Source of the DNA: Candidatus Omnitrophota bacterium
GTDB lineage: Bacteria > Omnitrophota > Gorgyraeia > Gygaellales > Profunditerraquicolaceae
Direction of reading: 5' to 3'
NCBI GenBank assembly: GCA_963805065.1
Contig: CAWDSS010000010.1
Location: forward strand, 536,359 to 600,358
DNA length: 64,000 bases
The translations under genes and the position numbers were made by a program. Below are positions 1 through 54,772 of the stretch, piece by piece; within the stretch, counting starts at the first letter, position 1, and each line of letters starts with the position of its first letter. Below the pieces are notes generated by a model. The model did no database searches. It was not told the DNA's origin and was given only the letters and a program-made list of their open reading frames with translations.

Positions 1-468
1 GTGCCTAAGAATTTCACGCCTGCTAAGTCTGTGTAGAGTAAACGTACGGCATCCAGGCCGCCCTGCTGATTGAAGCTGGCAGCATTCTTGTAGCTATTGA
101 TGATATCCTGTAAGGTCAGGGCTGTATCTAAGGTGGTAGTGATCACAGCGCCGGTGTCGATGTCTACACCCTTGATGGAGGTCTTGCCGATGTTGGCCAC
201 GGCATCAAACACGATCTGCCTTAACACAGCGCTCTTGGTAGAGACGCCGATTTTCTCATCAGTGGTGCCTAAGAATTTCACGCCTGCTAAGTCTGTGTAG
301 AGTAAACGTACGGCATCCAGGCCGCCCTGCTGATTGAAGCTGGCAGCATTCTTGTAGCTATTGATGATATCCTGTAAGGTCAGGGCTGTATCTAAGGTGG
401 TAGTGATCACAGCGCCGGTGTCGATGTCTACACCCTTGATGGAGGTCTTGCCGATGTTGGCCACGGCA
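1..468 (-). repeat. Perfect in-frame tandem repeat, period 264 bp (88 codons), truncated by the window edge
   Basis: Bases 1-204 are identical to 265-468 by direct comparison. The encoded unit contains ...GKTSIKGVDIDTGAVITTTLDTALTLQDIINSYKNAASFNQQGGLDAVRLLYTDLAGVKFLG. Confidence 0.95.
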
Positions 469-21400: not shown

Positions 21401-24400
21401 TCTTACTTTGTTCCTTACCTGTATTTACAGGTGAGGTTCTTTCAGCTGGAATGCTTTTAGCTGGAGTTTCGCCTCTGGCATTTTGCTTAATTATGTGGAG
21501 CTTACCTATATTGTAGGGCTCTACATTAATTAGCTTCCAGTTGCTCAGAGCACTGACCCCTATGAATCTAACCTTAGAGGTTGCACTCCAAGAACCTGCC
21601 CTAGCTGCATCTTTTATAGATGCACTTCTAGAACCTGGCGTAGCTCTATAAGCTGAGCTTACACCTTCTGCACTAAATTGTGCAGCTTTGTAACCTTTTG
21701 AACCAATATTTGTACTCGCTATTCTTTCAGATCCACGACCTGCGATCGCGAGAATCGCAGCCGCGGGTCTTATGGGGCCGGCGCGCTGGCGCAACATCCA
21801 AGCAAGAGAGTTAAGATCAGTCAAGGCTCCGCTTAGAGTTGCAAGGGAATTCTTTTGCAGATAAGTTTGTAAGCTAGGGAATTGTGAGACAATCACAATC
21901 AATGCCAATCCTCCCGCAATCCAAGGATTAGCTGTATTACCTATATATAGTAGGGCGAATGGCACAGCCATAGGCATTCCCAACGGCTGCTGCTTAGGCC
22001 CTCTATTCTGCAAAGGAGAGCCATTTGCCTGATCATCAAATGGCGCTTTGAGTTTCGGCATATTCCCTAGATAATCACTCCTGCCTATAATACTCAAAGG
22101 CGCTATAGGCTTGAGTTGCTTAACTACTAATGCCTTAAATTTGATTACGGATGATGCAAGTTTTGTTGCTTTCATAAACGTAAGTGGCAACAATGGACTC
22201 TTTGCTATCTTAGCCGTATTGGCCATTAACATGTCTTTGTTATTATAAAACACGGTCGTAATAAGCGACCCTTGCCTAAATGGAGTTGAACTTGCTGTTA
22301 TTAAAACAACTGCCATCTTAGCGCCTTGCGGAGCAATAATCCTGATTTCTTCTGCCTTGGTTAATGCTGCATTAAGTGTTAAACGCGCTACTAAATCAGG
22401 CGATCTGACTATTATTAAAGTAGGTAGAGTTGCCTTTCCGACGTCAGGAGCAAGTTGTTTTGCTTGTGCTGCTGTAAGGCGTATATTTTCCGCAACCTCA
22501 GGCCCAAGCTTCGTAGGCTTACCTATTATTGCTAGGCGAAATGCCGTATCAGACAAAGGCTGACCAGATCCCTCTACAGCCGCCATTATCGTCCCACCAG
22601 TATCAATCATCAGGTTTAATACCCCTATAGGGCTAGCACAGAGGCTATACTGCTCCAGTAACGACTGTAGCGCCTCGCCTACTGTTGGTATCTCTTCTAT
22701 CGGCGTGCTTCCGACGCGTAAACTTACCCCCGGCCTTACCGGCAACGCTTCAAAAACAGGCGAAGACGTTATTTTAACATCCACGCCTACTTCTGATGTT
22801 TTTTCAATTAGCTTAAACACGACCGCACCGTTAGGCTTAATATCTTTTACTTCAATTTTTGCTCCTTGCTGTTCAGCCAAATCTATTACATGTGTTGTGA
22901 ATGCTCTAATTTTAGCTTCCTGTTTAATGTTGTTAATGAAATCGTGTTTTACATAAATCAACCCCTGAGGTTTCAATACGCGGATAACTTCCTTCATTAC
23001 ATCTTGTTCTTTAGCCCACCTAAAAAGATCAATAACACTAACTTTTGTGACGCTATTATCGGCGAGAGGAATTTTTCTTGCATCAGCCCTCAGCACCGAA
23101 ACATTGGCGGGGATTGCTTCAGCTTGCTTATAAGATTTACTTAAGTTATTCAACTCCTTAGAAATATCAACCATCGGCTTCATGGCGAGCTTATCCGTTA
23201 AATCTGGTATCGTAGGATTATTTACAAACTTTAATAAAGGTACAACTAAATTATTGATATTCTTTTCTGATATATCAAGGTATATGGATTTGATGCCTTT
23301 CAATGATGCAACCGCTATATATGTTCCAGGGCCACCGGCTAAGTCAAGGAACGTATCTTTGTCATTTAGATCAAGCGCCTCCATTACTGCAATTGCAGGA
23401 ACTGTACGCTGTAACCTAAGTTGTGTCATGGGTGATGCAGAAATATTGATATCTTCTATATCCCCAAGATAATCTTTGCGTGGCGACGCAGACTGCGCCA
23501 ATGGCGTGGGTTTTATTGCTGTCTTCGCCATCGGCGAACTTGCAGCATTGGTTTCAATGCCGCTTTGTTTAACCAAATTCTGCAATGTAGCAACCGGAGC
23601 AATGTGCATAATTTCATCAATGCCGGTTTGCTTGTAAATAGCTTCAAATTTCTGGCCTAATTCAGGAGTAGAAAGTATCTTATCTGCCGCTTTAACCATC
23701 TTTTCATCTACTGCATAATAACTCTTGGCAACTCTATAAGCAGCAAAGAACGGAGTCATATGCCCAAAGAGTTCTATGGCTACTCCGAAATCAGTCTTCT
23801 CAATCTTGGAAGCTGACTTTACTAAATTATCCCATTCCACCTTAACCGGCGTGCTATCTTTGATTGCCACGCCGATATCTGCTATTGCCCCTGCTGCCAG
23901 TGTTGTGAATTTCTCCACTGCTATACTGGTACTATCGAAATCAGGGCTTTCTTTAATACGCCCTACCAGTGCTTCTAATGCCCTTGCCTTTATTATGGGA
24001 GCCTTATCGCTATCTCTAATTGCCCTAACATATTTGGCAATACTATCGTAATCAGTTCTTAAATAATCTACTAATACTTTTACAGACTCAACATCTTGTA
24101 ATTCTTTCACAAACTGCTCTAATGCTACTTTGTTATCTTTATACGCATATCTTAATCTGGCCTCGGCAGGATCATGTGTAAAGGCTATAAGGTTTTCTGC
24201 TGTAGGAATCAGTTTATCTTCTCTGATTAAGGTAGCGCCTACGCCATTACCATATTCTACTGAGTTAGCTAACATACTTGTCCTTGCGCCTTCAATAATG
24301 CCCAGGGTATTTAGTAATGTAGTTTCGAAATCATCTTTAGAAACTATCCTTGCTATCTGTTTATCTATAGTTGCCTGCTTTATTTCTTCAAATAGCACTT

Positions 24401-27400
24401 TCTCATTATCATTAAGCCTGGCTCCTATATTGCCAACGCTCGTGGGCAACCCGGATTCAAAATTATATTTCTGCTTGTTTTTATCCTTAGCATAGAAAGA
24501 TGCCATGTAGCTATTGGGATAGAATTTTGCCAAGGAAGGAGTTGATAGTTCACTTCCGAAAGAATAGGACCCGCCGTTCTTTACCAAATTATATTTCGTC
24601 CTATGGCTTAAGGCAGCATAATCGGGATTCTTGTATCTTAAGGCATTTAAGACATATCTTCTGCTAATACCCTGCAGGAACATCTTGGACATTTTTTTTA
24701 GTTCTTGGCTATTTTTATTAGAATAATAAAGTTCTGAATATTGCCTCATAAAGTCTTTAAAGGAACCTTTTTCCTTCATGGATTCAGGCTTAAAGAAATA
24801 TTTTACCCTTTCGCTAAAGGTTAGAGGCGTAGTGCCGGTGATATCTCTTACGTATTGCATCTGATCAGGGATTAAAATCTCCCCTGACTTGAGCTTCTTA
24901 TTCGCCCACTCTACTGTATCAATAGCTGTATAGGTGAGGGCGAACCATTCTGTAGGATTGTAACCCCAGAGGCTATCACGGCTCTCGCCTAAAGGAATGC
25001 CTGCTAATAAACCGAAAAGGTGACCTAATACTTCATGGCGGCTTTCAACGTTGCCTACTGATCTAATCTTAAAGCCGTATCTTCCATCTTGACCCAAGAC
25101 TGTTTCGAATCTATTCAAAGGAAGCCATACTTCAAACTTCTGCCCCATTTCATCGCTCTTGTCGAAAAGTTTTACTGTAGTGATATTTGGAGGCGCAGCC
25201 TTTAATACAACCTTACCTTCCAAGAATAGCATTTTTAATTCATCCATAATGGCTTCCGCACTCTTACCATTCATTAACGGCTTAACTTCTTCTGTTGCAG
25301 CCATAGTTTGCATTAATTTTTCCTGGATTTGCTTACGCTGTCCGGGATCACGAATACTGATATAGATTTCCCGTTGTAATTGATTGCAACCAGACTGCAA
25401 AGAATCAATCTTGGAAAGATCGACTTTTTCCGGTAATAATCCATTAGCTTTTAAGGCAACCGCCGTAGAAATACTTTCTATAAGCCTATCAGTGCCGATG
25501 TTCTGGCTATTTGATAAGCCCAATTTTTCCTGCAGGCCTTTAAAATCAGTATTATATTCTGAAACTAAATATTTTGAAACATCCTGTATCTTATCTGTTT
25601 TAAGTACATCAATCTTAGTGCTGAGATAATCCTTATTACTCTTGCTCTGGAGCACCTCTTGTAATACCGCTAATTTTTCCAATCTGTTTAATAAGTTTTC
25701 TACATTGCTACTCTTTTCATTTATCTTTTCAAGGTCTTCGAGATTTGCCCACTTCACAAACAGATCCTTTACATCAGCTACCTTCTCATCAATCAATGCA
25801 TCGGCAATGTTATATAGATATTTACCGCTAGATACTACCTCGATGTTCGCTTTAGCCTTATATCTTGTTTCTAATAGTTTACTATAATTTTTGAAGAGGT
25901 TATTCAGACTGGCCTTATATATTAATGTATCTTGGGCATCTAATTTAGAGGAATTCATTTTATCTACCAATGAATTTATATAATCGTCTACGAATGCTTC
26001 CTGCATTTGAGGCATAGCTAAACTTATCTCCCGTGCCAGTCTCTTTTTAGCTAAAAAATGATAGGCCCAATCCTCTGTGCTTATAGAAAATGTGGATTCG
26101 ATCTTGGCGAATTTCTTATCAAAAGATAGCTTCTTATCAACCAAAGTTGAATAAATAGTAAAGTTGATGTCTTTCTTTAATTCCTCAGAGGAAATTTCTT
26201 GGTTCTCCAATCCCGTTCCCTGCTTATATTGATCGAATTTTGTTTTAATTGAGGCAAATGCACTATCTTCTTCCCCTATTTCACGGGCCTTTTCTATGCT
26301 CGTCTTAAATTTAGTCTGATAGTATTGGATGGTCTTGTTAAATAACGGCTGGTCGAAATTATTTTCTCCCAAATTATCTTTTATTTCGTCAGCCAATTTA
26401 GTTTGGATATCTGGAATATTGATTATGTTTTGAATCTTATCTGTGTAGCTGATGGCTTGATCTTCTTGTAATTGTTTTAAGGCTAATTTCTGGTAAGCAC
26501 TGTTGTAGGCTGAGGTTAAATATTTAACTTTTTGAGCAGGAAATTCTTTTTCAGATAAAACAGAGGGCAGCGTCTTTACAATTACTTCCCTTAATTGCTC
26601 TTCTCTTTGCTGCTCTTTCTCTAAATCACTATAATCTTCTACCAAGCCTTGATATTTTAAAATCTTAGTAAATGATCTTAACTCTTCTTCATTAATTACT
26701 TTGTCTGTACCCGCTATAGCCTGCGCCAAAGAAATTTTATTGCCGTTAATTTCGATTTCTTTAAACATGAGGTTGTCTACAGCGTATAGCAAATCATCTT
26801 TATCAACTTTTGCTTTTGGTGCAGCAGGCTCTGTGGTTTTCTTGGCATCTTCTTTTAATAGGCCTTGCTTAAGCATAAACTTCTTGGCATCTTGCAATAG
26901 GCCTTGCTTCTCAACTGGAGTGTTTACATTTATTAAATCCTCCAGTTTAAGCCTCTGCCACAAAAGCTCAACCGCGGGATAAAGCCCAATGCTCTTTCTG
27001 ATCCTGCCTAATAAATCCTCCTGCTGGTAATTGATAATATCTTGTAAGGAAACCTTACTTCCCAGATTCTTGAATAATTCATCAGTAGCTTTTATCTTTT
27101 CTAGAGTGGATAACCCGTCATTATCGCTGTAAGAGACCTTGTATAATTTATCGAATGTTGTGCTGAATATTCTGTTCTTTTCTTCGAGTTTTTGGTAGAA
27201 CTTACCTGATAGTGAAAATGGACGGATAAAAGAAGCTATTCCTGCAATAGTCGGATATTCTCTTGTTGAAGCATACTGACCTTTTATGCTGGCATTAACC
27301 ACAGCCAGGCCAAGCAAGTAATTAGATAACTCGGCAGAACCACCTGCGATTTTCATTATATTCTTTTGAATATTGGCAGTCCTATTGATAACGGGCAAAT

Positions 27401-30400
27401 GTAGACGAATTAAGCTTGGGTTAATTGTAGCTGAAATCTTTCTTAAAGAAATTCCTTCATTAAAATTAACTGGATTGACCAACGCATGCTTTAAAATATT
27501 ATCTGCTCCCTTATCTCTATAAAGATGAATAAATCTAGAAACGATGGCCGTAGGGCTTATAGCATCGGCCATGGTGAAATATTTCATTAATAAGGTATCA
27601 TTGGTTTGCGCAGCAAAAGGAATATTGTTTACTAGCTGCGTATTTGCCCTCTCAAGCAATAACTTTTGGTCTCTAAATTTAGAAAGCCGCCCATAGGTAA
27701 CAGACGGGTTGATACTTAAGGATACAATCTGTTTTATATCTTGCTGGTCAACAGGAGCTAAGTTATTAATACCGGGTAAGGAGGTATCAATATACTGAAT
27801 TAAATTAGCTGCAGAAACCTGCACATTGAAATTAGTTGAGATATTCTGCCATAAAGCATTATTATGCTGTAAAGACTGCAGAGAATTATATAGAGTATTG
27901 GCAAAGGCATTGTTATTAATTTGAGGCCCGACAATACCTGCTACGATTTTAACGAGATTGGCGCTAGTTAAGGTATGCGTGCTAAAACCATCTATTGTCT
28001 TACGTATTGCATCTTTATCAGCCTCTGACACTGCGATTTGTTTGCCTTCTAATGTCCTGATTAATTGCTCTGCGCCTTCCCTTACCTGCATACTCTGTTT
28101 CATTAGGTCCTCTGAAGAATTGGAAGATGTTCTAATTGTAGGAAGTAAGAAATCTTCGGCTAACCTCTTTGCAGAAGGAAGGATATCCTTGACTGTCTGG
28201 ATATCTCTTATACCTATAATTTTTCCAGAGGATGCGCCAAACATCTGTTCTTCGAAGTTTTTATCTTTGGTGAGGTCCCATTCAGCGCTCCTGAATGCTA
28301 ATTCTATCTGTCCACGCTTAGCATAATCCTCTCGGAATGGAGACTCTTCTGCTAATAACCTAAGCTTGGAAGAAGTAGGCTCATAAGTGCGGTCCTTTGT
28401 CTCAAATGCCCTAGAATTGCCTTCCAAGACATTTACTAATGTCTTTACCTGTTTACCCAGGCCTTCCAATCTTTGTTTTACTATATCTTTAGGACGTGCA
28501 ATATCTTCGAAGGCAATGGTAGTATAGAGTTCTGAATTTCTGTCCAGAATAACCTCTTGATAAACCTTTTGGATAAAGTTGCGCTGCTTAGCATTCCAAG
28601 ATTTACCCATAAACTCTTCAAATGTACGTGTCAAGAATACCTCTTGCATGCTTCTTGTAAATATATCCAATGCTGCTTGGCTTCTATCTCTATATTCCTG
28701 TATATGAAAAGCTAGCTTAATGGCTTCTGGGTCAGAAAGATTCTTGTTATCTAGCGCATCAATATAGTTCTCAAGCTCAACACGCTCTCTTGATCCATAA
28801 GCAAGTTTACCTGCCTCTTTTTGCCAGCGTTCTTTTAAATATTCCTTTACTGGGGCTATATCCTTGAAATAAGCATCTGCTTGTCCGCGAGAGTAATAAA
28901 AATCTACTTTTGCGCCACGATCACTGTTACGGTTGATACGTGCTATTGCCTGCAAAGCTCTGGACATGTTGGTGATAGAAGGATTTTCCGCATAGAACAA
29001 ATTCACATCCTTGGCAACGTTAACTCCCTCTTCGCCGATTTCTGTGGTAATAATGATTTTACCTTTGCCGCTTAGCTGCTTTGCCTCACGGACTAGGTCT
29101 CCTTTATCAAAAGAGTCTGAACTGCCGTCAAATGACCGCAGATGTTCTCCACTTAACGAATCTAAATCTATGCCGCGATCTAATAATTCGTTCCTTAAAT
29201 AACCTTTGAACTCTCCCAGATTTTCTGCTCCCACAATTACATAAGCGGATTTACCTGATTTGCCTCTTTCCTTGCCAGCAATATTAGTTGCAATATTTTC
29301 GGCAACTGTCTTAGCCATTTCTTTCAGCGGCTCTGCTTTATCGTTGAGCTTTATCTCGCTGACGATTTCATTACCTACCATATAGAATAATTCATTATTT
29401 CTTATAACTAATCTTGCTTTTTCTCCGGCCAGGCTAAATTCCTTGCCATTCATAAAGGAAATGATCTCTGAAGGTGTTCCGGTTAATGCTGAGTTTCTTC
29501 CGCCAATCTTAGTAAAAAGCTGTAATACAGAAGAGGAAATAATTGTATCTCCTCCAGCAAAAGACTCGTTCCATTTAATCTTGTCTACAGGGATATTCTT
29601 TTCCTCTGCTTGTTTTAAGGCACTGGCTACCATCAAGGCTTTATTGTGTAAAACCATATCTGCCTGTAAACCATCCATCTTGCTAGACACCTGCACTCTG
29701 CCATCGGTAATAGCAACAGAAATTCCCTTCTTAATGATTGCGGATGCAATACTGGTAATATCTGCATCGGTAATGGTTTTGTCATGATTTAACTGAGTTT
29801 TAAGATAATCTAAGGCTGATTGGGTAAGAGCAACGCTATCGCCTTCTATAGCATAACCTCTTGTGGTGATGTCTTCTCTGGTCTTGGAAGGCTGTTCGCC
29901 TTGTTTAGTATCAACTTCTGCCAGCTCTAATTTAGTAATTGCCTTGCTATTTATGGCATCCTTTATCTTGTCATAAGCCAACTTGTATTTATTGTAGTAG
30001 TTGGAAAGCTTGGTGTGATCGCGTCCGACAATTGCTTCCAGGCTCTTAATAGCATTCTGTCCTTCATCAAAATCAACCAGGTGGTTGTTTTCTCTTAAAT
30101 ATGTGAATAACTCATCCGCGCTCTTCTTTGCCATATAATCAGAGACCATTCTGCGGTTAAACAGATGCGGGAATTTCTCGTAGCTTGCTACATTAATTGT
30201 ATTGGCATCTTTTAAGCTGGATAAAATCAATGATGTGGGAGTGAGAGGATTAGAAACAGCATTGTCTATGTTTTTGATCTTAAGTCCGAATAATTCTGTC
30301 CAGAAAGTTGCCTGGTCCATCACAGACTTAACCAAGGTTGTATTCTTGGTAAGATATAAAGAAGCTGTGTCTTTACGCGCCATGCTCTCTGATATCAAAG

Positions 30401-33400
30401 CAAGAGATATTGCTAAAGTTTTCCCCTGATTCATGGCAGCTTCGATATTCTCGCCCTTCATGATATCAAGCAATTTATCCGCTTTTTGCACCTGATTTAA
30501 AGACAGGAAATCAGTGTCAAGCTTACATGTCTCTACATCGGTAAAGATATCTTTTCTTATGCAGGCACGGGCGAACCATTCCATATCCTTCTTAATAATA
30601 TCTTCGGCGTTAGCACCTTTTTCTTGCTTAACTTTCTCTATTGCTTCCGCGAATGCCTTAGAGTATCCTTTATCAAATCCAGTAATTTTAGTTACGTCCT
30701 CACCTTTTTCATTAGTTAAGATATTGTAAGTAAACTCAATATCGATTTTGTCTACACCTTTAGAAACTTTTATTTTTATAACATCCGCACCATCTCGCAT
30801 GCTATTTTCTATACCCTCAATTACTACGCTCTTCGTTCTTAACATATCCCTGATCGGGCTACCAGAGGTCGATTGATCCACTATCTTTTCTGCAATCTTA
30901 GCGCTAATCAAACTGGTTATATCTGCATAATTAAATGGTTTGTCTAATTGAGCCTTCTCTATTAATTCTTGTTTAATCCCATCTACCAATTGCTGAGCAA
31001 GAATAGCTTTATCTGCTTCTTTTACAAATTTGATTTCTTTTAAATCGTCTTTTGTATAGCTAACTTGTATGTCTTCTGACCTACTGCCGTCTTCCTTTAT
31101 AAATGATACCCCTAACACTCCTTTGATTTCTTTTGTCAGCGGATCCATATTTTCTTTCAACACCCTTACTTCAATAGAATCCATGCGATTGTTAATTATG
31201 TCTTTGACTTCCTGGAATTTGGCGGGATTTGTCTCTGCTAATAAGGCTATATTACCTTTATTTGCATTTATGCTTTCGACGCCTCTCGTTACAAGGAACT
31301 CTATGGCTTCCAGCTTATTAGTATTCTCATCCTTAGCTGCTTCAATAAATAGTCTATTGAGAGACTTCTGATACCCTAACCAATCCTTGCTACTGCCGGT
31401 TTCAATGAATTTCGCTTCCGCTACCTCAAAATTTTCTATAGGAGATTTTTTCTTGTTTAACCAAGCATCTATCCAAGTAGTTTTCTGCATACCAAATAAT
31501 TCGCTGGGCATTACTGGCATCTTCGGCAGCTCTTTACCAGCATTTATTGCCTCTAGCTGCTGTTCCTTTATCCCCTTCAATTGACTATGCTTTTTCTCAA
31601 CTTCAACCTGCTGCTCTAAACGAAGCAATTCCTTCTCTCTTATGCTCTCAGGTTGCGAAAGAGGATTTTTCAAGTAATCAACCATTGCATTAGCATATTT
31701 TTTCTCTGAGTCAAATTTAGAATTCTTGATTTTCTCATTAAACTTCGCTATTTGTAGCAACCTATCAACAACCCCTGAGAGGGTATAAGGATTATCTGCT
31801 TTGATTTCTTTGCTACGATTGTCAACCAGCTTTACCTCTTTCAAGCGACCAAATATTGTTTTTGCTACATCAAAAATGTTATTTACATCGCTATCCTTTA
31901 CCTCTAAACCTTTTTCTCTTAAGATGGATTTGATTTGATCTATCTTTGCGCCTTCTTCTGCATTACTAAACACAATCGCTTCTATCGCCTTTCGTAAATC
32001 TGCTCTCGCATCCGTCAAATTCTTTTCTGCACGGCTGTCTGTAATGATATTGGTTATGGCACTGTCAAGATCGTGTGATAGTTCTCTGATTTTTTCTCCG
32101 GATTCGGAAGAAAGTTCGTTAATATCAACTCTCTTTGCGTTAATCGAACCTATAATATATTCTGCATTGTCAACGGAGACTGTTATGTCTTTTAAACCCC
32201 TTAAAGACCAAGGTAATTTAATACTGGTGTTTACCAATGCCTCTTGCCAAGTCACCTTGCCATCTCTTATGTCCTTGAGTTTCTCCGCCAGATTATCGGC
32301 GAGTTTAATCTTCTCTGTACCATAGTTACTCAATATTCCAGCCACAAATGAGGCGCGCTCTTCATCTCTATGTTTTAACAAGCGCTCTACGCCTTCTGTA
32401 ATTTCAAATTCTACTTTATCTATCTTTCCGTTTCTTGTCTCTTCCAGGGTTATCTTTCCGTTAGACATTACCTTGGTATGATTCATAGGAAGCTTTGTAA
32501 TCAGTACATTATCCAAGGCCTGGCTTAATGCCGATGTTTTATATTTCCCTTCTTTATTGATATCGAAGGCGAAATCTTTCCCTAAATCTATCTCTTGTGC
32601 GTTTACTGCTTCTGCTTCCTTGACTTTATCCTGTATAAACTTTAACTGGTTAAGGCTAAGATGAGAAATGCGCGTCATATCAAGGATAGCTTCTGCTTCT
32701 GATAACATGGTAACCGGTAGGGTTCTGGTTCTATAGGAAACAGTGATATTCTCTATCTTATCGGAGAGTTCGGTGGTAAAGTTGGCTAGGTTACTATAAA
32801 AATCTTCATTTCTTAAGAGGTTGTCTTCTGCGGCTTTGAATTTCTCCCAGGTAGCAAAACCATAGTATTTAGCTAATTTCTCCTGGGAAATTTTTGTATT
32901 ACCAGAGAACATGAAATCTTCTTTGAAGCTTAAATCAACAGGAGGAGAACGCTGTTGATCGGCGAGGTCTATATGGGCCTTGTAATCACTGGCAAGGTCC
33001 TTAACCAAATTCTTTATGTAATCCTCTCCTAACCTGCTCTTCATATCCCTGATTAAGAGATCGGGATTATCCTGATACATCTTTTTTAAAACATCTGGTT
33101 TCGTTTGGTAATGCTGTTGAAGTGTTCCTTCCCAGCCAGTATCGTTATGTTCTGCTGCTTGTTTATTTATGAAATCTTCCTTTTCTGCAAGCCTGGTTAT
33201 GGAATTTTTCAATACCATCTCTTCTATTGCTTGATCAAGGTGCGCTTGTGTGACCTTCGGGTTCTGGGGATTTTCTACTTTTGCAATTTCCGTTGCCTTA
33301 TCTATTACAACTTTGGAGATATTTTTTAAGCCCTGTTTATAAAAAACTTCCGCTGTTTCATCTAAAGATTTTCCAAACATATCTTGGGCTAAATTATTTT

Positions 33401-36400
33401 TGTTGATGTCTGAATCTGACAAGCCCTTCGCATTTAATTCCTCTTTTAGCTTAGAAGATAAGGCTTCTCTGTAATTTTCTAACCTTATAACTCCTAGCCC
33501 TAATCTTTGCGCTTCTGCATGTATACCAGCAATAAAATCTTGCTGACGATCGGCGTTAACCTTTATTTCCATAGTTTCCAAGTTTTCGGTTGTAGGTGTC
33601 ATGCTTAATCTATATGCGTCTTTATTAACAGCCGGAAGAATATCCTCTACATGACTTACGACGGATTTTATTAAATCCTCGCGTTTGAACTCACCGTTAG
33701 GACCAACATAAGCTCCGGCTTTTGTCTGTTCACGTAACATTTCCACTATGGGGTTTACTACGTAGGCGTCGATATCTTTTCCTAGTTCCTCAGGATTGTT
33801 GGCATAATGATTTTCAAGAATCCATATCCTGTCCTCTATGGCAGCATCCTTCATAGGAGAGGAGCTGTATTGCCTTCCCGCTACTATTGAAGCCACCAAT
33901 TCTTTTGCGCCTAGTCCGGAACTCTTAATTACATCGCCTATGCTGTTTTTGATATAGGTATTAATGGGAGTCAGGATTTCTGCTTCTAAAGCTCCTGGAT
34001 CATTAGAACGAATAGTATTAGTAACTAAGGTTCCTAAATCCTGCTTGTTTTCTCTTAGTCGAGAGATTATTTGTAGCGCTGTATCCTCCCTATTAATCTT
34101 CACATCTTCTCTGCCAATATCCTTGCCTTCTGCAACATAAGCTCTTAGGGTTCCCAGAGTATTTTCGGAGATTCTTCCGCCCATAGGCATACCTAAGAAA
34201 CCTATGAAAGAATAAAAACTAATTGCTTCTTTGGAAAAACCTTCATTTTGACCCAAATAGCCTTTAAGAATCTTATCATTTACCAATCCAAGGGCACCTT
34301 CAACGCTGCTTACAATTGCCGGCATGGTGATTACTGTTGATTCAACCCAATTCCCAAGACTCTTCATGGCGCCTTCTGAACCTTGGCGTAAAATAGCCTT
34401 TTCTATTGCATAAGCAGGCGCCCCTTCAGAACTTCTATTTATTGCGGCTATTCCTTTTTTCAATTGAATACCCAACCAGCGAGAAGGAGAAGTCAATAAT
34501 CCGAACTGCAAACCAGGCTCTAATGATTGCGCCTGAGCTAATCCAAATGTTGCGGGCATCCACCTACCAGAAAGAGAAGATTGCAAAACAGAGAACATAT
34601 TAGTAATGACAAGGTTCTTCCAGGTAAAATCCAATTTATTATTCACATCAAAAGGATTATCTAACTTTAAAGGCTCACCTGTAATCTTATCTGCTATCGC
34701 CCTGGCTGCTACTCCTCCTATATTAAATGCCGGGCCAACCGCAAGCCAGTTTGCCACACCTGCAGCATTAGTCTTATAAAGCCACTGCGCTCCGGAGAAA
34801 CGCTCATCTGAACCTAAACCAAATACTTTTACAGGCTCTCCTTTGCCGATTAACTCGATATTCTTAGTAAAACTCTTGGATAAATTTCCTAAATACCAGA
34901 AACTTAAGCCTCCCTTAAGTGCGCCCTTAATGTTATTAGCCAAAAAACTATTAACATCCGGCAAGCTCATGTAGTTAACTGCGTAGCTTACATTTTCTAT
35001 GCCTGCTCCCACTAATGTACCATATGCTATTTTTTTCCATCCCTGCGTCCAGCCATTCCATTCACTAATTCTTGATACGGCGCCGTTCCATTGAGTTATC
35101 CCTTGTGCTTCATTTTCTGTAAGTCTCCAACCATTGGATTTCTTGCTACCAAAAGGATAAACCATGGCTGCACCCCATAAAAGACCTGTAAAATAATTAT
35201 TGGGGTCAGATAATGAATTCTTCATGGAATCAATAAAGCCGCTATTCCCTTGCGAATAATTCCAAATCCCCTGACCAATAGGATTTAATATTGCCCCGGT
35301 TGCCGGATAGGTAAATACCCGGGTTGGTATCCTATCGGCAAAAGGCAGTTTAGCCAAAGTAGGTCCCGCTTCGGAAAGCTTGGCTTCAGGAGAATATAAC
35401 TTGGCAAAAGCTGATGTTCTTTCTTCTGCGTTTGTTGTAGTCATCTGTTTGGCTAAGCTAGGCGTCAACTCTAATACACCACCTATGGCGGCGCCAAAAG
35501 CTGAACCCTTTAAGAACCCGCCGCCAAAATCATACGCCATTGAAATAGGATTAGTTGGCTGCCCCAAAGCAGTTCTTATGCCTGTATTAGCTACAGCCTC
35601 GGTTCTTCCCCAGAAAATCCCAGTTGGAATAACATAGCGGGAAATAAAGCTGCTTTCTTTAGCCATTGCTAAACTCTCCCCCTTGTTTCCCAAAATTCCC
35701 AATACGCCAACCGTAGCAAGGTTTTCAAACGTATAGAAATCTCTTACGCCTTGTAATGCGCCTGCCCAAAAACCTTTTCCGCTGCCACCATCGCGCCAAC
35801 CGTTTATCCCGCCGCCTAATCCAGCAAATGCAGTGTAATAAGACAATTCTCTCAAGGCAGCGCCCACAGCATTCTTGCTTAAAACTAATTTTGCTCCCTG
35901 ATAAGCCATATCCCCGAGAGCTGCTGAACCTGCTTCGCCCAATAAAGGTAAACGGCCAGCAAGGCTAGTACTATATTCTTTAATTGTTAAAGCTGCGCGC
36001 TCAGAAAATGAAGCTCCCGCTGTTTCCTTAACCACTCCTTCTGTAGCTGCTGCAAAAGGAGCTGTTACTAATCTTGCACCTATGCCTAAGGTTAGAACAT
36101 CAAAACCTCCTTGCAAGGAAAGCAAGAAACGTTCAGTTGAGTTCTGAGCCCTATATAAACCGTATACATCGCTAGCTCTCCCACTTAATACTTCATAACC
36201 ACCTATGCCGATACGTGAAACTATAGCCATAGGATCAATAGGGTTTAATTTACTTGCCTCTCCTAAAGTAATCCTTAATTTTGCAAAATTATCATTGCCT
36301 ACGTTTTCGTATTTATAGCGACTATCTATTGCATTAGTCACTGCCTGCGCTCTTGATATAAGTGGGTCAACGACGAATTTAGTTGCAGGATAAACTAGTA

Positions 36401-39400
36401 CACCCAAAACAGGAATTCCTAACAGTTGTTCAGACACCGGAACTTCTAATGCCTTTGCAATAGCTTTATCAATATCAGCTCTGCTTGGTTCTGGAAGCTG
36501 TTCAGTGCCTTGTGGAGTGACGAAATTATAATTTGACATTGCTTTTCGTAATGATGCTTGAGTGAATGATGCACCAGTTCCTCCATTAGCAATGCTATAG
36601 GGATCCAAATCTAAAGTAACCCTTCCCAATACAACTGAATTCACTGTCTTCTGGCCTTGACTTCGCAGAGAAGCAGCAGTATTTAAATCTACAAGCTGCT
36701 GTTTAACTTTTTCATCTTCTTGCTGGAATTTTTCTGGGGTGGGGTATTTCTCTCTGACGTATTCGCCGATTGTGGTCATTGTTACAATGCCCCCTGAAGG
36801 ATTTAAAGGAGTTATAACTTTATAAGGAGTTTTGCTGTCAAGCAAAGATAAATAATTAGCATGGTCTTGGTCTTTTGTGTAATGTTCCGATGCATCACGA
36901 AGTAGTGCCAAGTCTGACTCTACGCTCTCAGGCAAAATTATATCAGGATAATAATATTCGCCCTTGCCCATTGCTTTATTATATAAAGTAATAGCACGCA
37001 GATTCATAGCGGTCGAATAATTATTATATTTATCTAGAGCTATTATTGATCCAGCATAATTCCCATTTTGGATGCCGAGCTCTGCTTGTTTTAAAACGCG
37101 ATCCTTTTGGTAAAGCACATCCTGTTCAGTCCCAATTTGCTTCTTTGCCAACTCTTTTAACCCATTAGCCATGCCTTCAATTCCTAGGTCAGAAGTAAAC
37201 TTATCGAAGTCCAAATGCTCACGAGTTTCTTGTACTTGCTTGCTTAATACATCTTTGGCTAATTTTGCGCCTTGATCCGTCAGGATATATGTTTTACCTT
37301 CGACAACAAAAGAACGTACTCCATTTTCAGACTTATTAAGATCCGTCAGGTTTTGCCATTTATCACCCTGCTTAATAGCATATGGCACACCTTCTCCTGC
37401 GGGAGAAACTTGATAAGCAACTCCGTTAACTTCATAAGTCTTTCCTACGGGTACAGGTACCGTTAGCCCTTCAACTTTTTTGGCATAAGCATTGATTGTA
37501 ATTTGGCCTTGAACTTCATCTAAGACCGCTTGCTTAAGTACATCTCCGAGTTGATAAGTGCTTCCGATTTTACGCCAGGCATTATCTGCATAAACCCAAA
37601 GCGGATCTCCCTTAAGACTATAGGCAACATTATTTTTTATAATAAAAAAACCATCTCCAGACTTATTTGGCATTACTGTTACAGTCTTTTTCCCGTCCCG
37701 CGGATATAAAGTCAAATCCCATGACAATGAATCTTTATTTGGGCGTGCCTTTAATATAGATGCTTCCAAACCACTTATGTCATCTTGCTTTGTTACTCCG
37801 TTAATCTCATAAATACCATCTAGGAATTTATTAAATATTTTGTGGGCATTCTCTGTTTCTGGTCCGGAGAACCCATCGGGATTTATTTTATTAGCGTTCA
37901 ACCCTTTGTCAATCAGGCTATTAAAGAATTGTTGAAATTCCAGCGTATATTTCTCTCGTCCGTCAGGATAATAAAAAGCTACCTTTTGTTTGTCTAAAGT
38001 GGCTAAAGGATCTTCTATACTCAATCCATCTTTTTGCAAAATACCAACAAACTTCTTGCCATCTTTAGTCGTTATGTTGAACGTTGTGCCTACGGGCAAC
38101 TGTTTGCCTTTAGTAACATCAAGGAGTTTCCCGCCGGCATATACCACATCATCCTTACCCATTTTACCGCCGGTAATAGCTTTTGAACCATTATACAACG
38201 TGTTATTCATTACTGCGCCATCCTCTAAATGGAAAATAGTGGTAGTAGCTATACTGCCTTTTGACCCCTTCAGCGCTAACTCACCGCCAGATAACCCCGT
38301 AACCAGACTAACCACCTTGCCGTCTACTAATTTCTCTCCGAAACGAGCTGCTACTTCTGTCGCGCCTTTGTCGATTTTATAAAGAGACAGGTCTTCGCCG
38401 CCCCAGCCCACTGAAGCCTCGCTGCCTTTTTCAAAGGTAATTTTACTACCTGGGGTACCGGCTAATGATTGCAAGCCGCCATCTTCAGTAAAAGCGAATT
38501 GCAACTCCGTCCCCTGCCCAAAGCTGACTACTTTTTTGTCTGTACCTATATTTTGGATTTTTTTAAGATTAGTTAAAAGCCCGATGTTATTATCCAGGCC
38601 GGTATGAGGCTTATTCTGATTCTTTGCTCCGCCATACTGGTTAGCTTGCAGGACGTAGTCATGGAATATTTCCTCTCCTTCATTTGCTGAAACAACAATT
38701 CCAAACTGGTTAATATTCCCTTTATTTAGATAAAAATAAAGGCTATTTATGGAAGCTTTTCCGATATCTCCTTTCGGCGTCCTGGTCTCAAGCACTCCTG
38801 GCGCATTAAGCCATGCCAATGGATAAAGTTTTTCCTGATATCGATTATCCTCTTTTTCCAATATGGTGAATTTCGTTATGTCTAAATTTTGTGCTTTAGC
38901 AATTGTTCCTTGAGGCATTGTTGTGCTGACATCCGTTTTTACATTAATAGCTGCTAAAGGAACTAATCCTTCCTTCCGCCAGCTCTCAACCAAAGGTGCC
39001 TGCTCTATGCCGTTTAAGCCAATGGTTAATTTTCTGTTCCAAACATCCTGCTCGCCGACCGGCAGGCTTGAACTTAGCAAAGCATTCAACTGCTCGGCGG
39101 TTATTGTCTGCCTAGCCAATATAACATTAACATCCTTTATATTATTTCTCTTATCACGGTTGGGTATATAGAGTATTACCTCTTTATCATTATTGTCTTT
39201 ATTTTCTATCTTGATTTCTGCTTCCCGATGTTGTTTCGCCAGCTGAACAATGTTATCATTGAGCGTCTTAAAACCTGTTTCCTGGATATTATAAATATTA
39301 GCTCCCCAGAAGAGATGAGTAGAAACTGCTGAAAGGCCTTGTTCTGTTGGGACTAGCTGTACAAAGACATCTCCGGACAAGGCATCCATCACCAACCTGC

Positions 39401-42400
39401 TATCAGCGTCACGCTTAGCAACTACATTATTAAGAAAACCTGTGGGAGGAATATATCCTATTTCTGAAGGCTTAGAACGCTCACTGTTATTCCTGCTTGC
39501 AAGGCTTTGCAGGAAAAGGGGATTTTTATCGACATTAATTGAGAATCCCATCACATCCCTGTATATTGCAGAAGGGTTTCTTCTTAATTCAGTTATGCTG
39601 CCCGCTGCTTCTAATTCTGCTAAAGTGCCTTTTGCGGTCTGCCAGTCTGCGTAAAGTTTATTATATGATTCCAGCAGGTTTTCATAAGCCTCTTGTTGCT
39701 CAGGAGTCTTGGTTGGCTGAGCCACTAACTTCTCCAGTGCCTTCAATTGCTCTGCCTTGTTAGATTCAACCATCATGTTTGCCAATCCGAGCTTGTTTTC
39801 TCTATAGAGGTTCAGGCTATTAATTTGCAGGGGTCCGTTAGCAGTTTCAAACACAAGCGGCTTAGAAAGGTAAGTTAAACCGGAATTATAAAACTGTCCG
39901 GATTGAGGTTCAAGTGTTTGAACCAAGGCAACTTCTCCTTGTGTTATATTAACATTCTTACCTTGTTCAAGCGTATTTAGTTGCTGGGAAATCTTATCAT
40001 ATTCATCCCGGGGCTCTGATTTTGAAACAATCTTTGCTAACTCAGTCTGCTTTGCTTTCTGAAGCCTAGCGATTTCTGAACTCGTTTGGGAATCCTTTGG
40101 CATATTTTCAATCGCTACCCCTGCCATATTGTAATACACGACGCGGACTGCAGGGATATTCTTGTCTGTTTGGCTATATTCGGCTTTATCGGCATATCTT
40201 ATGGTTGTGCCGCCATAAGAACCGCCTTCATAGCTGAATAAACCATCTGGCCCCTTAAGGCCGTCCATTTCATTTTTAGAAATCTCTATCGTTGCCTCAA
40301 GATTTCCAAAAGGTTTCCCCTCTGTGCCGCGATCAAAAATTTCTATCTTCCCGCTTGTTTCCCCAAATGTCATTTTGTAAGAATATTCATCAGTAGGATT
40401 TAATATGAGTTTAAAATTAGCGTCCTTGTTATGCTCTGTCACAAATTCATTCCACTTTTTACTCTCTATATTTATACTCGAGCCGGAAGCACCGAGCAAC
40501 CCAGTCATTCCAGTCAATTTTCCGTGGGTGTCAAAATCTAAAAGAAATTCTAATGATCCGCTCACGAATTGGCCTTTTGCATCTTTGGCACCAATCAGCG
40601 TGGTACCATTTGAAACTATCTTTGTGTTGCTTGGCGGTACATCATTATGTTTATAATCCTGGGTATAAAAATGATCTATATCGGTAATGAGTCGAGCTGC
40701 TCCCGAATCATCAATATAAGCTCCTGTAATTTGCCCAACATTCAACTTGCCATTTTCGCCTATCTGAAATATAGGATTATTAGCTCCTACTACAGCCATG
40801 GCCACATTTTTACCGGTAGCTAAGTTCTGCGTAAGCCAAGCCTGTCCTTGAGTAGCAACATTATAATCTGATAACAAGCCTTTAGTCAAATCTACACTTG
40901 CTTTGTCTTTGGGCAAGATAACGTTTAAATCCGCTAGAGAAGCACGGTAACTATTAGGATTCCCGTTTATGCCTAATGCATATTGCTCTAACGTACCTAT
41001 CCGCTCGGGAGAAGAATAAACACCGAGAGCCGAGCCCAACAAAGGCAATAAGCCCTGGATGTTTTCCCGGTTATAAAGCTCAGATTCTCCCAGAGAGACA
41101 CTATGTCTTGCTTCTGTTAGAGAAACCGGGCCTAAACTAACTGGTTTTTCTCCAAAAGAATTCAGTAAACCTTGTATTGCATAAGCACTGCCTTCCCCTT
41201 TATAGGTGTCAATTTTCGCACCCGTAAACAGCAACATTGCATTATCAACCGCCGCATACTGCAGCCCGTTAGCAGTATAATTTACCAAAGAATAATAAAA
41301 CCCTGGAGTTAGTTTATCCAGCTGAGTACGCTTAAGTTTATTCCAAGACAAACCCGACTCTTTCTTTGCCTGGTCAACATTATAGACAAAATCAGTGTAG
41401 CCTGCGAATTGTCCGAGTTTTTCATTATAAGCATTGAAGTAATACCCGCCTGCACCGCCGGTGTATAAAGGAGAGGTGCCACCCCAACTAGTAAAGTTCT
41501 GGCTGAGGTTTGAAAATTGCGTCAAGAATGCATATTTACCAGTGTCTTTGTCTGTTTCCAGGGCAGCTAATCCGGAAAATAGAGAAGCTGTTGCTAGCCA
41601 ATTTAAACTGGACATCTCTACATTAGTCAACCCCCACTTATTCTTTCCTGTATCTCTATCGAATTTACCGCCTAATTGGCTTAGCCCACCGGCAATTGCG
41701 CCCTTAAGCGCACCTGACATAATTTGCTGATAATAATCCTGAGCGGTAACGCCTGAATTCACAGCGCCACCAATGCCGCCGCCTAATAACTGAGACCATT
41801 CTCTCTGGTGCGTTGCATATTGCACGCCTAAGCTGACTACGTCTGTGATTAGCCCACCGTTGTAAACACTGTCCTGCCACGATGCCTTTATTGCATCCAT
41901 AGGACTGTTAATTTGTGCATAGGCATAAGGCTGATTTGTTATGGGATTATTCAATAGTTCTTGCGGAGTAAACTGCATTGTCGTATCGCCAACAAGAGGA
42001 GAATACAATATCCCGCGTTTCATCTCTAAAATAGACAGTGGCGTATTAGCCTCTACCGGAGACTTAATACCGGGGTTCATCCCTGCGCCGTAAGCAAGTA
42101 GATTAAAACCTGCTTCGCCAACAACCCCTCCTGCCATAGAAGCCAATTGGTTAGCAATGAGCGGATTCCTTTCAGCAAAACCTGTATTTTTGATTAAATC
42201 ATAGGCTGCCAATTTGCCTGCTCCCTGGAATGCGCCCTGGGTGAAACCTCCAACCGGTCCGCACAAATAATTATTCCAAAGATTAGCATCATTACCCATA
42301 GTGAATATATTGGAATTTTGGAACATCGAAACTGTGCCGGTTAACATGCCGCCTACACCATATCCGAACACCATGGCGCCTGCCGGGCTCATGTCCCATT

Positions 42401-43527: not shown

Positions 43528-43568
43528 AACCACTGATTTCACGGATTTTTCAATCACGGATTTCACGG
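43528..43568. repeat. Left arm of inverted repeat bracketing the giant-gene promoter and leader
   Basis: AACCACTGATT-T-CACGGAT-N8-CACGGAT-N2-CACGG. Its partner lies at 44063-44101. Confidence 0.8.
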
Positions 43569-43650
43569 TTTCGCCTCATTTAAAAAGCTTTATAAAACTT
43601 ATTAGTAAGTCCTTAAATAAAAAAGGTTGTCAAATACTGACTTTTCTCGT

Positions 43651-43750
43651 CGATATTCGGCAACCCGGCTATCTTTTCTTGCTTGACTTGGAATCTCCAA
43701 GACCCGTGGCTTTGCGCCCCCTGATCACTCAGGGTTTACCTTTTCGATCC
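43651..43750 (-). promoter_or_regulatory. GEMM-I (c-di-GMP-I riboswitch)-like aptamer candidate in the giant-gene leader
   Basis: Minus-strand RNA GGAUCGAAAAGGUAAACCCUGAGUGAUCAGGGGGCGCAAAGCCACGGGUCUUGGAGAUUCCAAGUCAAGCAAGAAAAGAUAGCCGGGUUGCCGAAUAUCG. It has GGUAAAC, then a 6-bp hairpin with a GNRA loop (CCCUGA-GUGA-UCAGGG), then GCGCAAAGCC, a second hairpin, and AGCCGGGUUGCCGAAU. From memory, the Vc2/GEMM-I blocks are GGCAAAC ... GACGCAAAGCC ... AGCGGGGUUACCGAUGG. Confidence 0.5.
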
Positions 43751-43772
43751 CCTACTTTTCAATTGCATTTCA

Positions 43773-43801
43773 AGTATAACATTTCAATAATCCCTTGTCA
43801 A
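43773..43801 (-). promoter_or_regulatory. Sigma-70-type promoter of the giant gene
   Basis: Minus strand TTGACA (43796-43801), 17-nt spacer, TATACT (43773-43778), about 295 nt upstream of the ATG. Confidence 0.6.
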
Positions 43802-43852
43802 GCCGAAAGTTAGGAATTAAAGATAACGCTTTCTTATCCCCATCTTTTTACA

Positions 43853-43909
43853 GGGACACCCAATATTTCAAAGCAGGGACACCCTTGTTTCTGAAGCTAA
43901 AGGTGTCCC
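43853..43909. repeat. GGGACACCC REP-like element, type 1 (half-site plus hairpin)
   Basis: GGGACACCCAATATTTCAAAGCAGGGACACCCTTGTTTCTGAAGCTAAAGGTGTCCC. It is near-identical to 54795-54851. Confidence 0.8.
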
Positions 43910-43957
43910 CTCTACCCTAAAATCTAGTAGATTATCCTTACAAACCTAATTCTACAT

Positions 43958-43993
43958 AGGGACACCCTTCCGATTGATTTCGAGGGTGTCCCT
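43958..43993. repeat. GGGACACCC REP-like hairpin, type 2
   Basis: AGGGACACCCTTCCGATTGATTTCGAGGGTGTCCCT. It differs at one base from the copy at 56838-56873. Confidence 0.85.
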
Positions 43994-44062
43994 GCTGTTC
44001 TATGTTTGCGGTGAATGAACCAAATTTTCGGGCTTTAATGATGAATTTTCGGGTATTTCTTT

Positions 44063-44101
44063 TTCCGTGTTATCCGTGTACGTTCCGTGTAATCAGTGGT
44101 T
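44063..44101. repeat. Right arm of the inverted repeat (reverse complement of the left arm)
   Basis: Reverse complement reads AACCACTGATT-A-CACGGAA-N4-CACGGAT-N2-CACGGAA. The first 11 bp are identical to the left arm, and both arms carry three CACGG sub-repeats. Confidence 0.8.
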
Positions 44102-44102
44102 C

Positions 44103-44154
44103 AGATTGGACATTTTTAGCATAATATGACAGGCTTATCTCAGATTGGACATTT
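44103..44154. repeat. Two direct copies of the 13-mer AGATTGGACATTT
   Basis: Copies at 44103-44115 and 44142-44154. The same 13-mer pair occurs at 54717-54792. Confidence 0.85.
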
Positions 44155-44174: not shown

Positions 44175-45044
44175 TTAACCTTTGAACAAATTACCTTGCG
44201 TGAATTGTAAGATAATTGGACCGGCGATAACTATTCCTATAACCGGCAATATGCAGAATATAAGCGGGATAAGCATTTTCATGGGGGCTTGTAGGGCTAT
44301 TCTTTCTCCTCTTTGTGCCCGTTGCATCCTGACGTCCTCAGACAACATACCCAGGACCTCAACCACGGGGGTACCCATTCTTTCTGCCTGGGTGAGAGTA
44401 TTGACAAAAGAGCGTATCTCCGGAAGCTCTATCCTTTTGGCCATATCTTTTAAAGCCTGTAAACGGGGCTTGCCCCATTTTATTTCTTCCAGGACAAACG
44501 CTAATTCTTCTATCATAGGGTTGGTTTTGGTCTTCTTAACTATCCATTCCATGGACATGGTAAAATCTAATCCTGCATCCATGCACAGGCTCAATAAATC
44601 TACTACCTCAGGCAGCACTTTCGAAATAACTTGCCTGCGTTTTGCTATTCTCTTGCTTAGCCAAACATCAGGAATCATATAACCAAATGCCAAAGCCGCA
44701 ACTATGGCAGGAGCTACAATCTTGCTAAATATAAGATAGGTTACAAATACTAAAGCAATCATTAATACAAACTTTAGGCTGAAGAATTCTACGGGTGTCA
44801 GCTTAAGGCGGGCAGCATACAGCCTCTGGTAAATCTTTTCTTTTAACTTGGGGTTCTGCAAGGCGAAGTTGCTGAGCCGAAACACCGGTTTTAAATACCT
44901 CAGGAAATCCGCCTTTACTCCCGTAGGTAGTTCTGATGAGGGAAGGCGCTGGCGTATCTGGGCGTTACTGTTCATAATGCCCAGGGTTGCCGTAAGCACA
45001 AGGCCGATAGCAACGATGAAAAATAAGAAAATCAGGTATATCAT
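44175..45044 (-). CDS. tadC: Tad/Flp pilus inner-membrane platform protein TadC (T2SS-F family)
   Basis: 289 aa. GspF-like core LPEVVDLLSLCMDAGLDFTMSMEWIV ... RSFVNTLTQAERMGTPVVEVLGMLSEDVRMQR with N- and C-terminal TM helices. It is the second of two tandem paralogues. Confidence 0.8.
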   Translation of the reverse strand: MIYLIFLFFIVAIGLVLTATLGIMNSNAQIRQRLPSSELPTGVKADFLRYLKPVFRLSNFALQNPKLKEKIYQRLYAARLKLTPVEFFSLKFVLMIALVFVTYLIFSKIVAPAIVAALAFGYMIPDVWLSKRIAKRRQVISKVLPEVVDLLSLCMDAGLDFTMSMEWIVKKTKTNPMIEELAFVLEEIKWGKPRLQALKDMAKRIELPEIRSFVNTLTQAERMGTPVVEVLGMLSEDVRMQRAQRGERIALQAPMKMLIPLIFCILPVIGIVIAGPIILQFTQGNLFKG

Positions 45045-45910: not shown

Positions 45911-46132
45911 CTACTCGAACCTGCCGCAGGGAATGAGGTTTCCTGCGGAATCATAACATTTGGTGCCGGTCGGATAATACTGCCTGCCGTGGCCGAATGT
46001 ATCTCCCACATCACGCCACCTGCCGGTTATCGCCCTCCTTAAATAAACTGACATGGCAAGCAATGCAGCTACGATTATTGCGATTAACACTGCGTACTCT
46101 AATGAACTAAAGGCCTTGCGTATATTAATCAC
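45911..46132 (-). CDS. Flp/pseudopilin-like small protein
   Basis: The N-terminus MINIRKAFSSLEYAVLIAIIVAALLAMSVYLRRAITGRWRD shares the xSxLEY + hydrophobic helix + Y-x-(K/R)R motif with the pilin paralogues at 50.7-52.8 kb. Confidence 0.55.
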   Translation of the reverse strand: MINIRKAFSSLEYAVLIAIIVAALLAMSVYLRRAITGRWRDVGDTFGHGRQYYPTGTKCYDSAGNLIPCGRFE

Positions 46133-52134: not shown

Positions 52135-52149
52135 TCGTCTCACCTCCTT

Positions 52150-54707: not shown

Positions 54708-54743
54708 TTTATCTCCAGATTGGACATTTATAATCTCAATACA

Positions 54744-54772
54744 AATATAACACACATAGAATAAGCTGTCAA
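54744..54772 (-). promoter_or_regulatory. Sigma-70-type promoter of the HTH gene, flanked by AGATTGGACATTT copies
   Basis: Minus strand TTGACA (54767-54772), 17-nt spacer, TATATT (54744-54749). The 13-mer copies at 54717-54729 and 54780-54792 bracket it. Confidence 0.55.

Follow-up and report, generated by a model that had tools for sequence, protein, structure and literature searches.

The stretch analysed here, 64,000 nucleotides of a Candidatus Omnitrophota genome and referred to throughout as the window, carries a Tad pilus operon (tadC, tadB, pilins, secretin and ATPase) that runs toward one giant open reading frame (ORF), and the subject of this analysis is the 696-bp spacer between tadC and that ORF. 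Homologues of TadC place the window in Omnitrophota, where the giant ORF has been seen directly 3' of the Tad operon both in the window and in a related locus, L128, in which its orthologue (L128:11555-20867) is called at 15,506 amino acids. Near its N-terminus, at residues ~189-267, the giant ORF has a Peptidase_C39-like domain. Within the spacer, a promoter, a cyclic di-GMP (c-di-GMP)-type aptamer and two hairpin modules all sit between a pair of inverted arms, as the initial annotation had reported, and the segment that these arms bracket is 574 bp long. The arms are members of a dispersed cross-phylum repeat family, and it is their relation to the regulatory cassette between them that has to be interpreted.

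Both arms lie where they had been placed. The sequence AACCACTGATT occurs exactly twice in the 64 kb, at 43528-43538 on the plus strand and at 44091-44101 on the minus strand, and over 18 nt the two arms form an inverted repeat with 17/18 identity (43528-43545 with 44084-44101), a match reached by none of 300 shuffles of the spacer. CACGG(A/T) sub-repeats had been described as three per arm and as possible heptads; they are present, but there are four units per arm and the period is 9 nt. In the left, or proximal, arm these are CACTGA at 43531, CACGGA at 43540 and 43555, and CACGGT at 43564, and in the right, or distal, arm they read TCCGTG at 44064, 44073 and 44084 and TCAGTG at 44093. Six of the ten WCACGGWW sites of the window fall inside the arms, as do all four exact copies of the 15-mer CACKGATWWCACGGW, for which 6 sites are found with up to two mismatches against 0.6 expected. 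The outer end of the proximal arm is 49 nt from the ATG of the giant ORF, in agreement with the earlier figure of about 50, and the distal arm directly adjoins an AATGTCCAATCTGA repeat.

Table 1. Positions of the arms, the cassette that they bracket and the neighbouring features (window coordinates).
Feature	Position	Strand	Description
Proximal arm	43528..43570	+	In the 5' untranslated region (UTR) of the giant gene; AACCACTGA-TTTCACGGA-(9 nt)-CACGGA-TTT-CACGGT, four tandem nonamer units
Distal arm	44063..44101	-	73 nt 3' of the tadC stop; AACCACTGA-TTACACGGA-(5 nt)-CACGGA-TAA-CACGGA
Giant ORF	3..43478	-	Stop-free frame of >14,495 codons, ATG at 43478, leaves the window at its edge
Sigma-70-type promoter of the giant gene	43773..43801	-	TTGACA-17-TATACT, extended TG, 11/12 match
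c-di-GMP-I-GGC aptamer	43655..43749	-	RF03167, 63.6 bits against a gathering score of 59, E 4e-14
Terminator hairpin and U6	43618..43666	-	Built with the 3' strand of the aptamer
REP-like module 1	43851..43909		Three GGGACACCC motifs; 95% identical to 54794-54851
REP-like module 2	43947..43996		GGGACACCC/GGGTGTCCC hairpin; 88% identical to 56823-56873
AAATGTCCAATCT repeats, two copies	44103..44154 (44103-44115, 44142-44154)	-	Just 3' of tadC; also at 54717-54729 and 54780-54792
tadC (T2SSF)	44175..45044	-	Final Tad pilus operon gene, preceding the spacer
IS110/DEDD transposase gene	55124-56185		'IS110 family RNA-guided transposase', 220 bits

The hairpin that follows the aptamer is accompanied by a U-run in the window (43618-43666) and in two orthologous loci (L129:8064-8136 and L128:11366-11410), with z-scores from -3.0 to -6.3. 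Because it shares the aptamer 3' strand and ends in a U-run, it is best read as a transcription-termination platform for the giant gene, and its layout suggests an expression platform that would act as a transcriptional ON switch when the ligand is bound. An Rfam search of the spacer at E<=1 returned nothing besides the riboswitch, no intrinsic terminator was found on the minus strand between tadC and the promoter, and when the leader was folded, the proximal arm took part in no significant structure (z -1.3).

To survey the repeat family, we used one exact outer 18-mer, AACCACTGATTWCACGGA, as the seed against one genome per species (596 Gb), with taxonomy taken from the record titles. The 18-mer was matched at no fewer than 119 loci (L001-L119), against the ~35 that we estimate would be expected by chance in 596 Gb. 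Its carriers include Planctomycetota, Verrucomicrobiota, Chloroflexota, Cyanobacteria, Bacteroidota, Marinimicrobia, Latescibacterota and others, with Chryseobacterium oleae (DSM 25575), Laspinema and Phormidium among the isolates; members of the family are also present in Bacteroides finegoldii and Nostoc punctiforme. Among the 80 titled matches listed, Proteobacteria are almost absent and there are no Firmicutes; viral contigs gave only seven matches to the 18-mer. A third unit, an inverted partner, or both accompany 93 of 122 seeds, and double units number 324 against 2 in shuffles, an excess of ~160-fold. The arrays of the family have the layout AAC-CACNGA-TTW-CACNGA...; those recovered independently of the seed likewise start with AAC-CAC and have 2-3 units per arm, spaced at 9 nt in 262 cases and at 10 nt in 62.

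At 44 seeds, the inverted partner lies within 150 bp, which produces palindromes of 64-140 bp whose arms are conserved and whose core is variable and sometimes contains other hairpin repeats (compact examples are L020:7673-7737, L115:5596-5661 and L025:4947-5029). The family occurs either as such palindromes, with almost no interior, or as solo arms, usually just 3' of genes; the spacers that hold its elements are tandem in 48 cases, convergent in 24 and divergent in only 3. No neighbouring gene is shared, as clustering of the ORFs within 2.5 kb of the 122 seeds gave housekeeping families only, and no transposase was found in the long-span arm pairs. An Rfam search of 18 family loci returned one tRNA and no known RNA family over the arrays, literature searches by arm sequence returned primers only, and the nonamer-array family appears to be undescribed.

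Several candidate identities were considered for the family and set aside. An intrinsic terminator is rejected since a T-run precedes the palindrome and an A-run follows it, the reverse of the order in a terminator, and a selected RNA hairpin is rejected on inspection because the unit positions vary without pairing between the arms. A TTAA target fits only some copies. Among candidates from other systems, namely integron attC sites (AAC...GTT ends, 57-141 bp), the DnaA box, the parS half-site (TTTCACG), the GGA motif of CsrA, CtrA and sigma-54, none appears compatible with units repeated in tandem every 9 nt or with the range of phyla in which they occur.

That members of the family can insert is seen in one Chitinophaga metagenome-assembled genome, in which a 93-bp nonamer palindrome is present at least five times, nearly unchanged and with its flanks conserved (L017, L054, L063, L074 and L109). 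One of these copies (L017:4976-5490) splits an ORF of the 23S_rRNA_IVP family, which is direct evidence of insertion. No direct repeats were found beside 48 compact family members, and target-site duplications of 2-4 bp were not seen there.

Some inverted arrays enclose genes. On a Marinimicrobia contig (L049), where an element follows nearly every gene, an arm pair abuts the ATG and the TAA of a 122-amino-acid gene that matches both PF13366 (PDDEXK_3) and TIGR04256 (GxxExxY) at L049:2456-2871, and a GxxExxY homologue adjoins the arms in L076, an Opitutales chromosome. We also looked at the pattern from the side of the genes, in small samples of 12 GxxExxY genes, drawn independently from PLSDB records and IMG/VR contigs, and of 4 genes for four-helix-bundle proteins. 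At 7 of the 12 GxxExxY genes, the arrays exceed all 100 shuffles of the flanks, and their tandem period is mostly 9 nt. Array-flanked genes of this type occur in plasmid records of Bacteroides finegoldii, Bernardetia and Treponema as well as in IMG/VR contigs; in Bacteroides finegoldii the units are CACAGA/CGCAGA/CACGGA and the site lies between radA and a gene for an FAD protein. Variant units (CGCAGA, CACAAAG, CGCGAAAAG and an AT-rich 13-mer) were found in several contigs of the viral collection, and exact AACCAC-CACNGA arrays abut PF13366 genes in L049 and L146 (L146:500-1010). Altogether, GxxExxY genes are bracketed by inverted arrays, with a unit that varies by lineage, in L049, L146, L145, L150, L151, L149 and L152.

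The four-helix-bundle genes, which belong to the 23S_rRNA_IVP family and come from Nostocales, lie in 4/4 cases between perfect inverted arrays of heptamers (CAATTCG, AATTCAA and GTAATTC at L155-L158, on Nostoc and Dolichospermum plasmids). These heptamer arrays resemble the short tandemly repeated repetitive (STRR) sequences of cyanobacteria and the GACAGAT heptamers in the 23S rRNA intervening sequence (IVS) of Coxiella. The Coxiella IVS is described as a selfish element in which tandem GACAGAT heptamers precede the S23p ORF and RNase III cuts the stem formed by the terminal inverted repeats, 28 bp long (PMC4990558). PDDEXK_3 is listed as a family of unknown function and is reported to show multiple inter-phylum transfers (PMC3424549). 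In the literature on GxxExxY, PF13366, STRR and IVS, we did not find this architecture described, apart from the paper on the Coxiella IVS. A different arrangement occurs in the region L119:4700-5400, where a cyanobacterial gene for a Uma2-family (PF05685) endonuclease, a minus-strand ORF at 2667-3243 of the reverse complement, stands between two nonamer arms in the same, not inverted, orientation.

Five related assemblies, of lineages and populations other than that of the window, cover the spacer at least partly: L127/L128 (same organism), L129/L133 (identical), L130, L131 and L132, the last of which covers only its first part. A metagenome scan with a promoter 21-mer contributed L133, the other eight matches being due to chance. 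The promoter block AAGAAAGCG...TTGACAAG...GTTATACTT is invariant in five Omnitrophota loci, the riboswitch is kept in the orthologues and directed at the giant gene, and both have one orientation in all five related assemblies. The AATGTCCAATCTG repeats after tadC are common to the relatives that reach this feature, and AAATGTCCAATCT is present in 2-3 copies just downstream of tadC in each orthologous locus (L128, L129, L130, L131 and L132).

The arms do not follow this conservation. In L130, the forward arm is decayed and adjoins AATGTCCAATCTGA, just as the distal arm of the window does. Its reverse arms are intact but stop at AAGAAAGCG, on the upstream side of the promoter, and the L130 element therefore excludes both promoter and riboswitch. 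L129/L133 have the 5'-UTR arm only, abutting GGGGTAAGGGG as it does in the window, and L128 has neither arm, the proximal one having decayed there. The two-arm bracket is peculiar to the window genome; since the interior of the cassette is present in relatives missing the arms, it is resident orthologous DNA.

Each lineage has its own family of REP hairpins in the spacer between tadC and the giant ORF. In L129, a REP-like hairpin, GGGACTGTCCC, fills the spacer and apparently also the first codons of the giant ORF (L129:7590-7800, 8265-8300 and 8420-8460), and the L130 spacer has another, GGGGACGGTTCTC...GAGAACCGTCCCC. In the window, five GGGACACCC motifs between the arms form the two hairpin modules listed in Table 1. 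The GGGACACCC modules at 54794-54851 and 56838-56897 are inverted, 89% complementary and placed on either side of a RAYT-like Y1 transposase gene (56347-56829; on NF047646 it scores 78.2 bits, slightly short of the 80 required). It is these hairpins, and not the arms, that fit the REP/REPIN-with-RAYT pattern of species-specific repeats inverted around a Y1 gene. The initial annotation had pointed to a DEDD (IS110) recombinase gene some 11 kb away as a possible agent of inversion. The gene is there, but it lies between the left GGGACACCC REP module and the Y1 gene, belongs to this separate REP/RAYT cluster, and nothing ties it to the arm sequence.

Further repeats accompany the Tad operon. A 57-nt repeat is present in five copies that are 61-75% identical (46043-46099, 50982-51038, 51307-51363, 51682-51738 and 52039-52095) and marks small paralogous genes of the operon, one of which (ORF 51808-52143) gives a weak, sub-threshold match to a Class III signal peptide. 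The AAATGTCCAATCT motif recurs in the putative upstream region of a 573-amino-acid ORF (53034-54755), and in two genomes a nonamer arm abuts it; the motif may be a regulator site or a favoured insertion point.

Taken together, these observations make it probable that the arms are the gene-less ends of a widespread family of small, IVS-like selfish elements, which bracket the cassette by juxtaposition and do not constitute a dedicated inversion switch. The distal arm, at the 3' end of tadC, would occupy the usual position of the family, and the proximal arm would be an older relic in the leader of the giant gene. In the relatives, arms are gained, lost or decayed independently of a cassette of fixed orientation, and because the arms vary in this way, the bracket most likely arose incidentally, from two relic arms in a spacer where REP elements accumulate as well. 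The family may owe its mobility to its nuclease. If the arms have any effect, the most plausible one would be pairing within tad read-through RNA to give an RNase III-type processing site, as in the 23S rRNA IVS; transcripts from the internal promoter would carry the proximal arm only. The initial annotation had listed a non-autonomous transposon with multi-site ends among its alternatives, and this comes close as far as the arms are concerned, although the 574-bp segment as such is not mobile and its interior is resident.

Several observations weigh against this interpretation and should be kept in mind. All 8 units of the window arms are intact, and both arms have the less common T/G at two variable positions, while L129 and L130 have decayed orthologous arms. 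Recent homogenisation, or selection acting on the pair in this lineage, is hinted at by this difference. Nonamer arrays are rare in the Omnitrophota loci. The GxxExxY genes of L144 and L148 are without such arrays, a search of the window with tblastn and a hidden Markov model (HMM) built from six GxxExxY proteins found neither a GxxExxY gene nor a remnant, and no gene or remnant of either the GxxExxY or the four-helix-bundle type was found in the window or in the Omnitrophota loci.

A broader reading would join all of these elements, and we offer it tentatively, as something that may well prove wrong. Inverted arrays of tandem 7-13-nt repeats, of which AAC-CACNGA-TTW nonamers are the commonest, would define the ends of cross-phylum and apparently undescribed miniature selfish elements whose cargo would be either a GxxExxY PD-(D/E)XK nuclease or a four-helix-bundle protein. 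The 23S rRNA IVS would be a special case, most elements would have decayed to palindromes of 65-140 bp or to solo arms, and the pair in the window would have been co-opted to pair in RNA, cutting the riboswitch cassette out of tad read-through transcripts.

The explanation put forward initially, a programmed inverton, holds that a site-specific recombinase exchanges the arms and flips promoter, riboswitch and terminator, so that the giant gene is switched ON and OFF in a phase-variable manner. It predicts flipped junctions in which the outer flank CTTACCCC is joined to AACCACTGATT-ACACGGAACGT. A 17/18 inverted repeat around the only recognisable promoter is what one might expect of such a switch; known invertons (fimS, hix and the C. 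difficile flgB switch) have arms in the same range of lengths, the two arms are preserved unusually well in comparison with the orthologues, and the IS110/DEDD gene is 11 kb away. However, the arms are unexceptional members of a dispersed family, copies of which typically enclose nothing that could be inverted. The orthologous loci do not keep the bracket (both arms lie upstream of the promoter in L130), only a single orientation is seen across the five related assemblies, and the region from 44 to 64 kb encodes neither a tyrosine nor a serine recombinase, its IS110 gene being part of a REP-RAYT-REP cluster. The initial annotation had itself named many dispersed copies, and arms absent from orthologous loci, as observations that would speak against inversion, and in part this is what was found: copies are many and dispersed, and in the orthologues the arms are absent or rearranged, which disfavours the inverton and leaves it very unlikely as a programmed switch, although recombination between the arms might occur rarely. 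The related proposal, that the whole 574-bp segment is a unit resembling a miniature inverted-repeat transposable element (MITE) that brought promoter and riboswitch in with it, draws on the terminal inverted multi-unit ends and on the insertion behaviour of the family at L017. It is barely credible, since the interior is found in the same order and orientation in relatives missing one or both arms, no target-site duplication surrounds the segment (the flanks are CCCC and CAGA), and neither a second copy in the window nor interior copies that travel with the ends were found.

More can be said for an RNA insulator, in which the arms would pair in tad read-through RNA and RNase III would cut the stem, so that an intact leader would come only from the riboswitch-controlled promoter. 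The arm-arm RNA duplex, although interrupted, is predicted at -42.4 kcal/mol against -10.9 +/- 3.1 in shuffles, both arms are intact in the window genome, the region from tadC to the promoter has no recognised intrinsic terminator on the minus strand, and excision of an IVS by RNase III at a terminal inverted-repeat stem is established (PMC4990558). We nevertheless regard a dedicated insulator as unlikely, because relatives sharing this operon, promoter and riboswitch do not keep the pair, and because the variable unit positions, on inspection without covariation between arms across the family, argue against selection for pairing. A symmetric array of regulator-binding sites had also been suggested, here upstream of the promoter and in the leader, and would control the giant gene by looping or as a roadblock. 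The regularly spaced short direct repeats in paired 15-mers and the proximal arm shared by the window and L129 are consistent with this; yet the same arrays occur in many phyla beside unrelated housekeeping genes, mainly at 3' ends and in divergent promoter regions in only 3/75 cases, and L128 has the same promoter without arms, which makes regulation through the arms highly improbable.

On these results, the giant Tad-linked gene appears to be governed by its conserved promoter and c-di-GMP-type ON riboswitch, and not by DNA inversion. The array pattern could account for GxxExxY and the four-helix-bundle '23S rRNA IVS protein', two very abundant protein families that lack an assigned function. 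Should it be confirmed, it would provide a testable model in which the arrays are the target of the nuclease or its partner and the stem is the target of RNase III, and it would define a class of repeats able to yield false inverton or MITE calls in genome scans.

The closest known relatives are the 23S rRNA IVSs with an S23p/four-helix-bundle ORF found in Coxiella, Leptospira and Salmonella, which are likewise small selfish elements with inverted ends partly made of short tandem repeats and which have an ORF of ~120 amino acids inside. The window arms differ in being built from 9-nt CACNGA units, in having no such ORF between them, and in lying 538 nt apart around resident regulatory DNA, in the spacer and leader of an mRNA instead of in rRNA; RNase III cutting is known for the IVS, whereas here there is only a predicted duplex. 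GxxExxY (TIGR04256/PF13366 PDDEXK_3) genes share the same kind of inverted arrays, down to the AACCAC-CACNGA type at L049 and L146, but have no counterpart between or near the arms of the window.

Three other classes of repeat invite comparison. Promoter invertons such as fimS and the flgB switch of Clostridioides difficile also have short inverted repeats around a promoter segment next to a gene for a surface structure, and the flgB switch lies downstream of a c-di-GMP riboswitch, which the leader in the window likewise contains; in the window, by contrast, there is no recognised cognate recombinase, one orientation is seen, and the repeats are generic family ends that are not conserved with the promoter. 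MITEs with multi-site ends and the cyanobacterial STRR heptamers resemble the family in their terminal, inverted and reiterated short units, their high copy number and, at L017, the insertion into a gene; they differ in that the family has shown no target-site duplication or DDE transposase partner, and its associated ORFs encode small nuclease-fold or four-helix proteins. REP/REPIN/BIME and ERIC palindromes are, like the family, dispersed, gene-less and imperfect, located at gene 3' ends, free of target-site duplications and subject to variable insertions in the core, but REPs are species-specific hairpins tied to a RAYT, whereas the arm arrays are cross-phylum and composed of tandem units.

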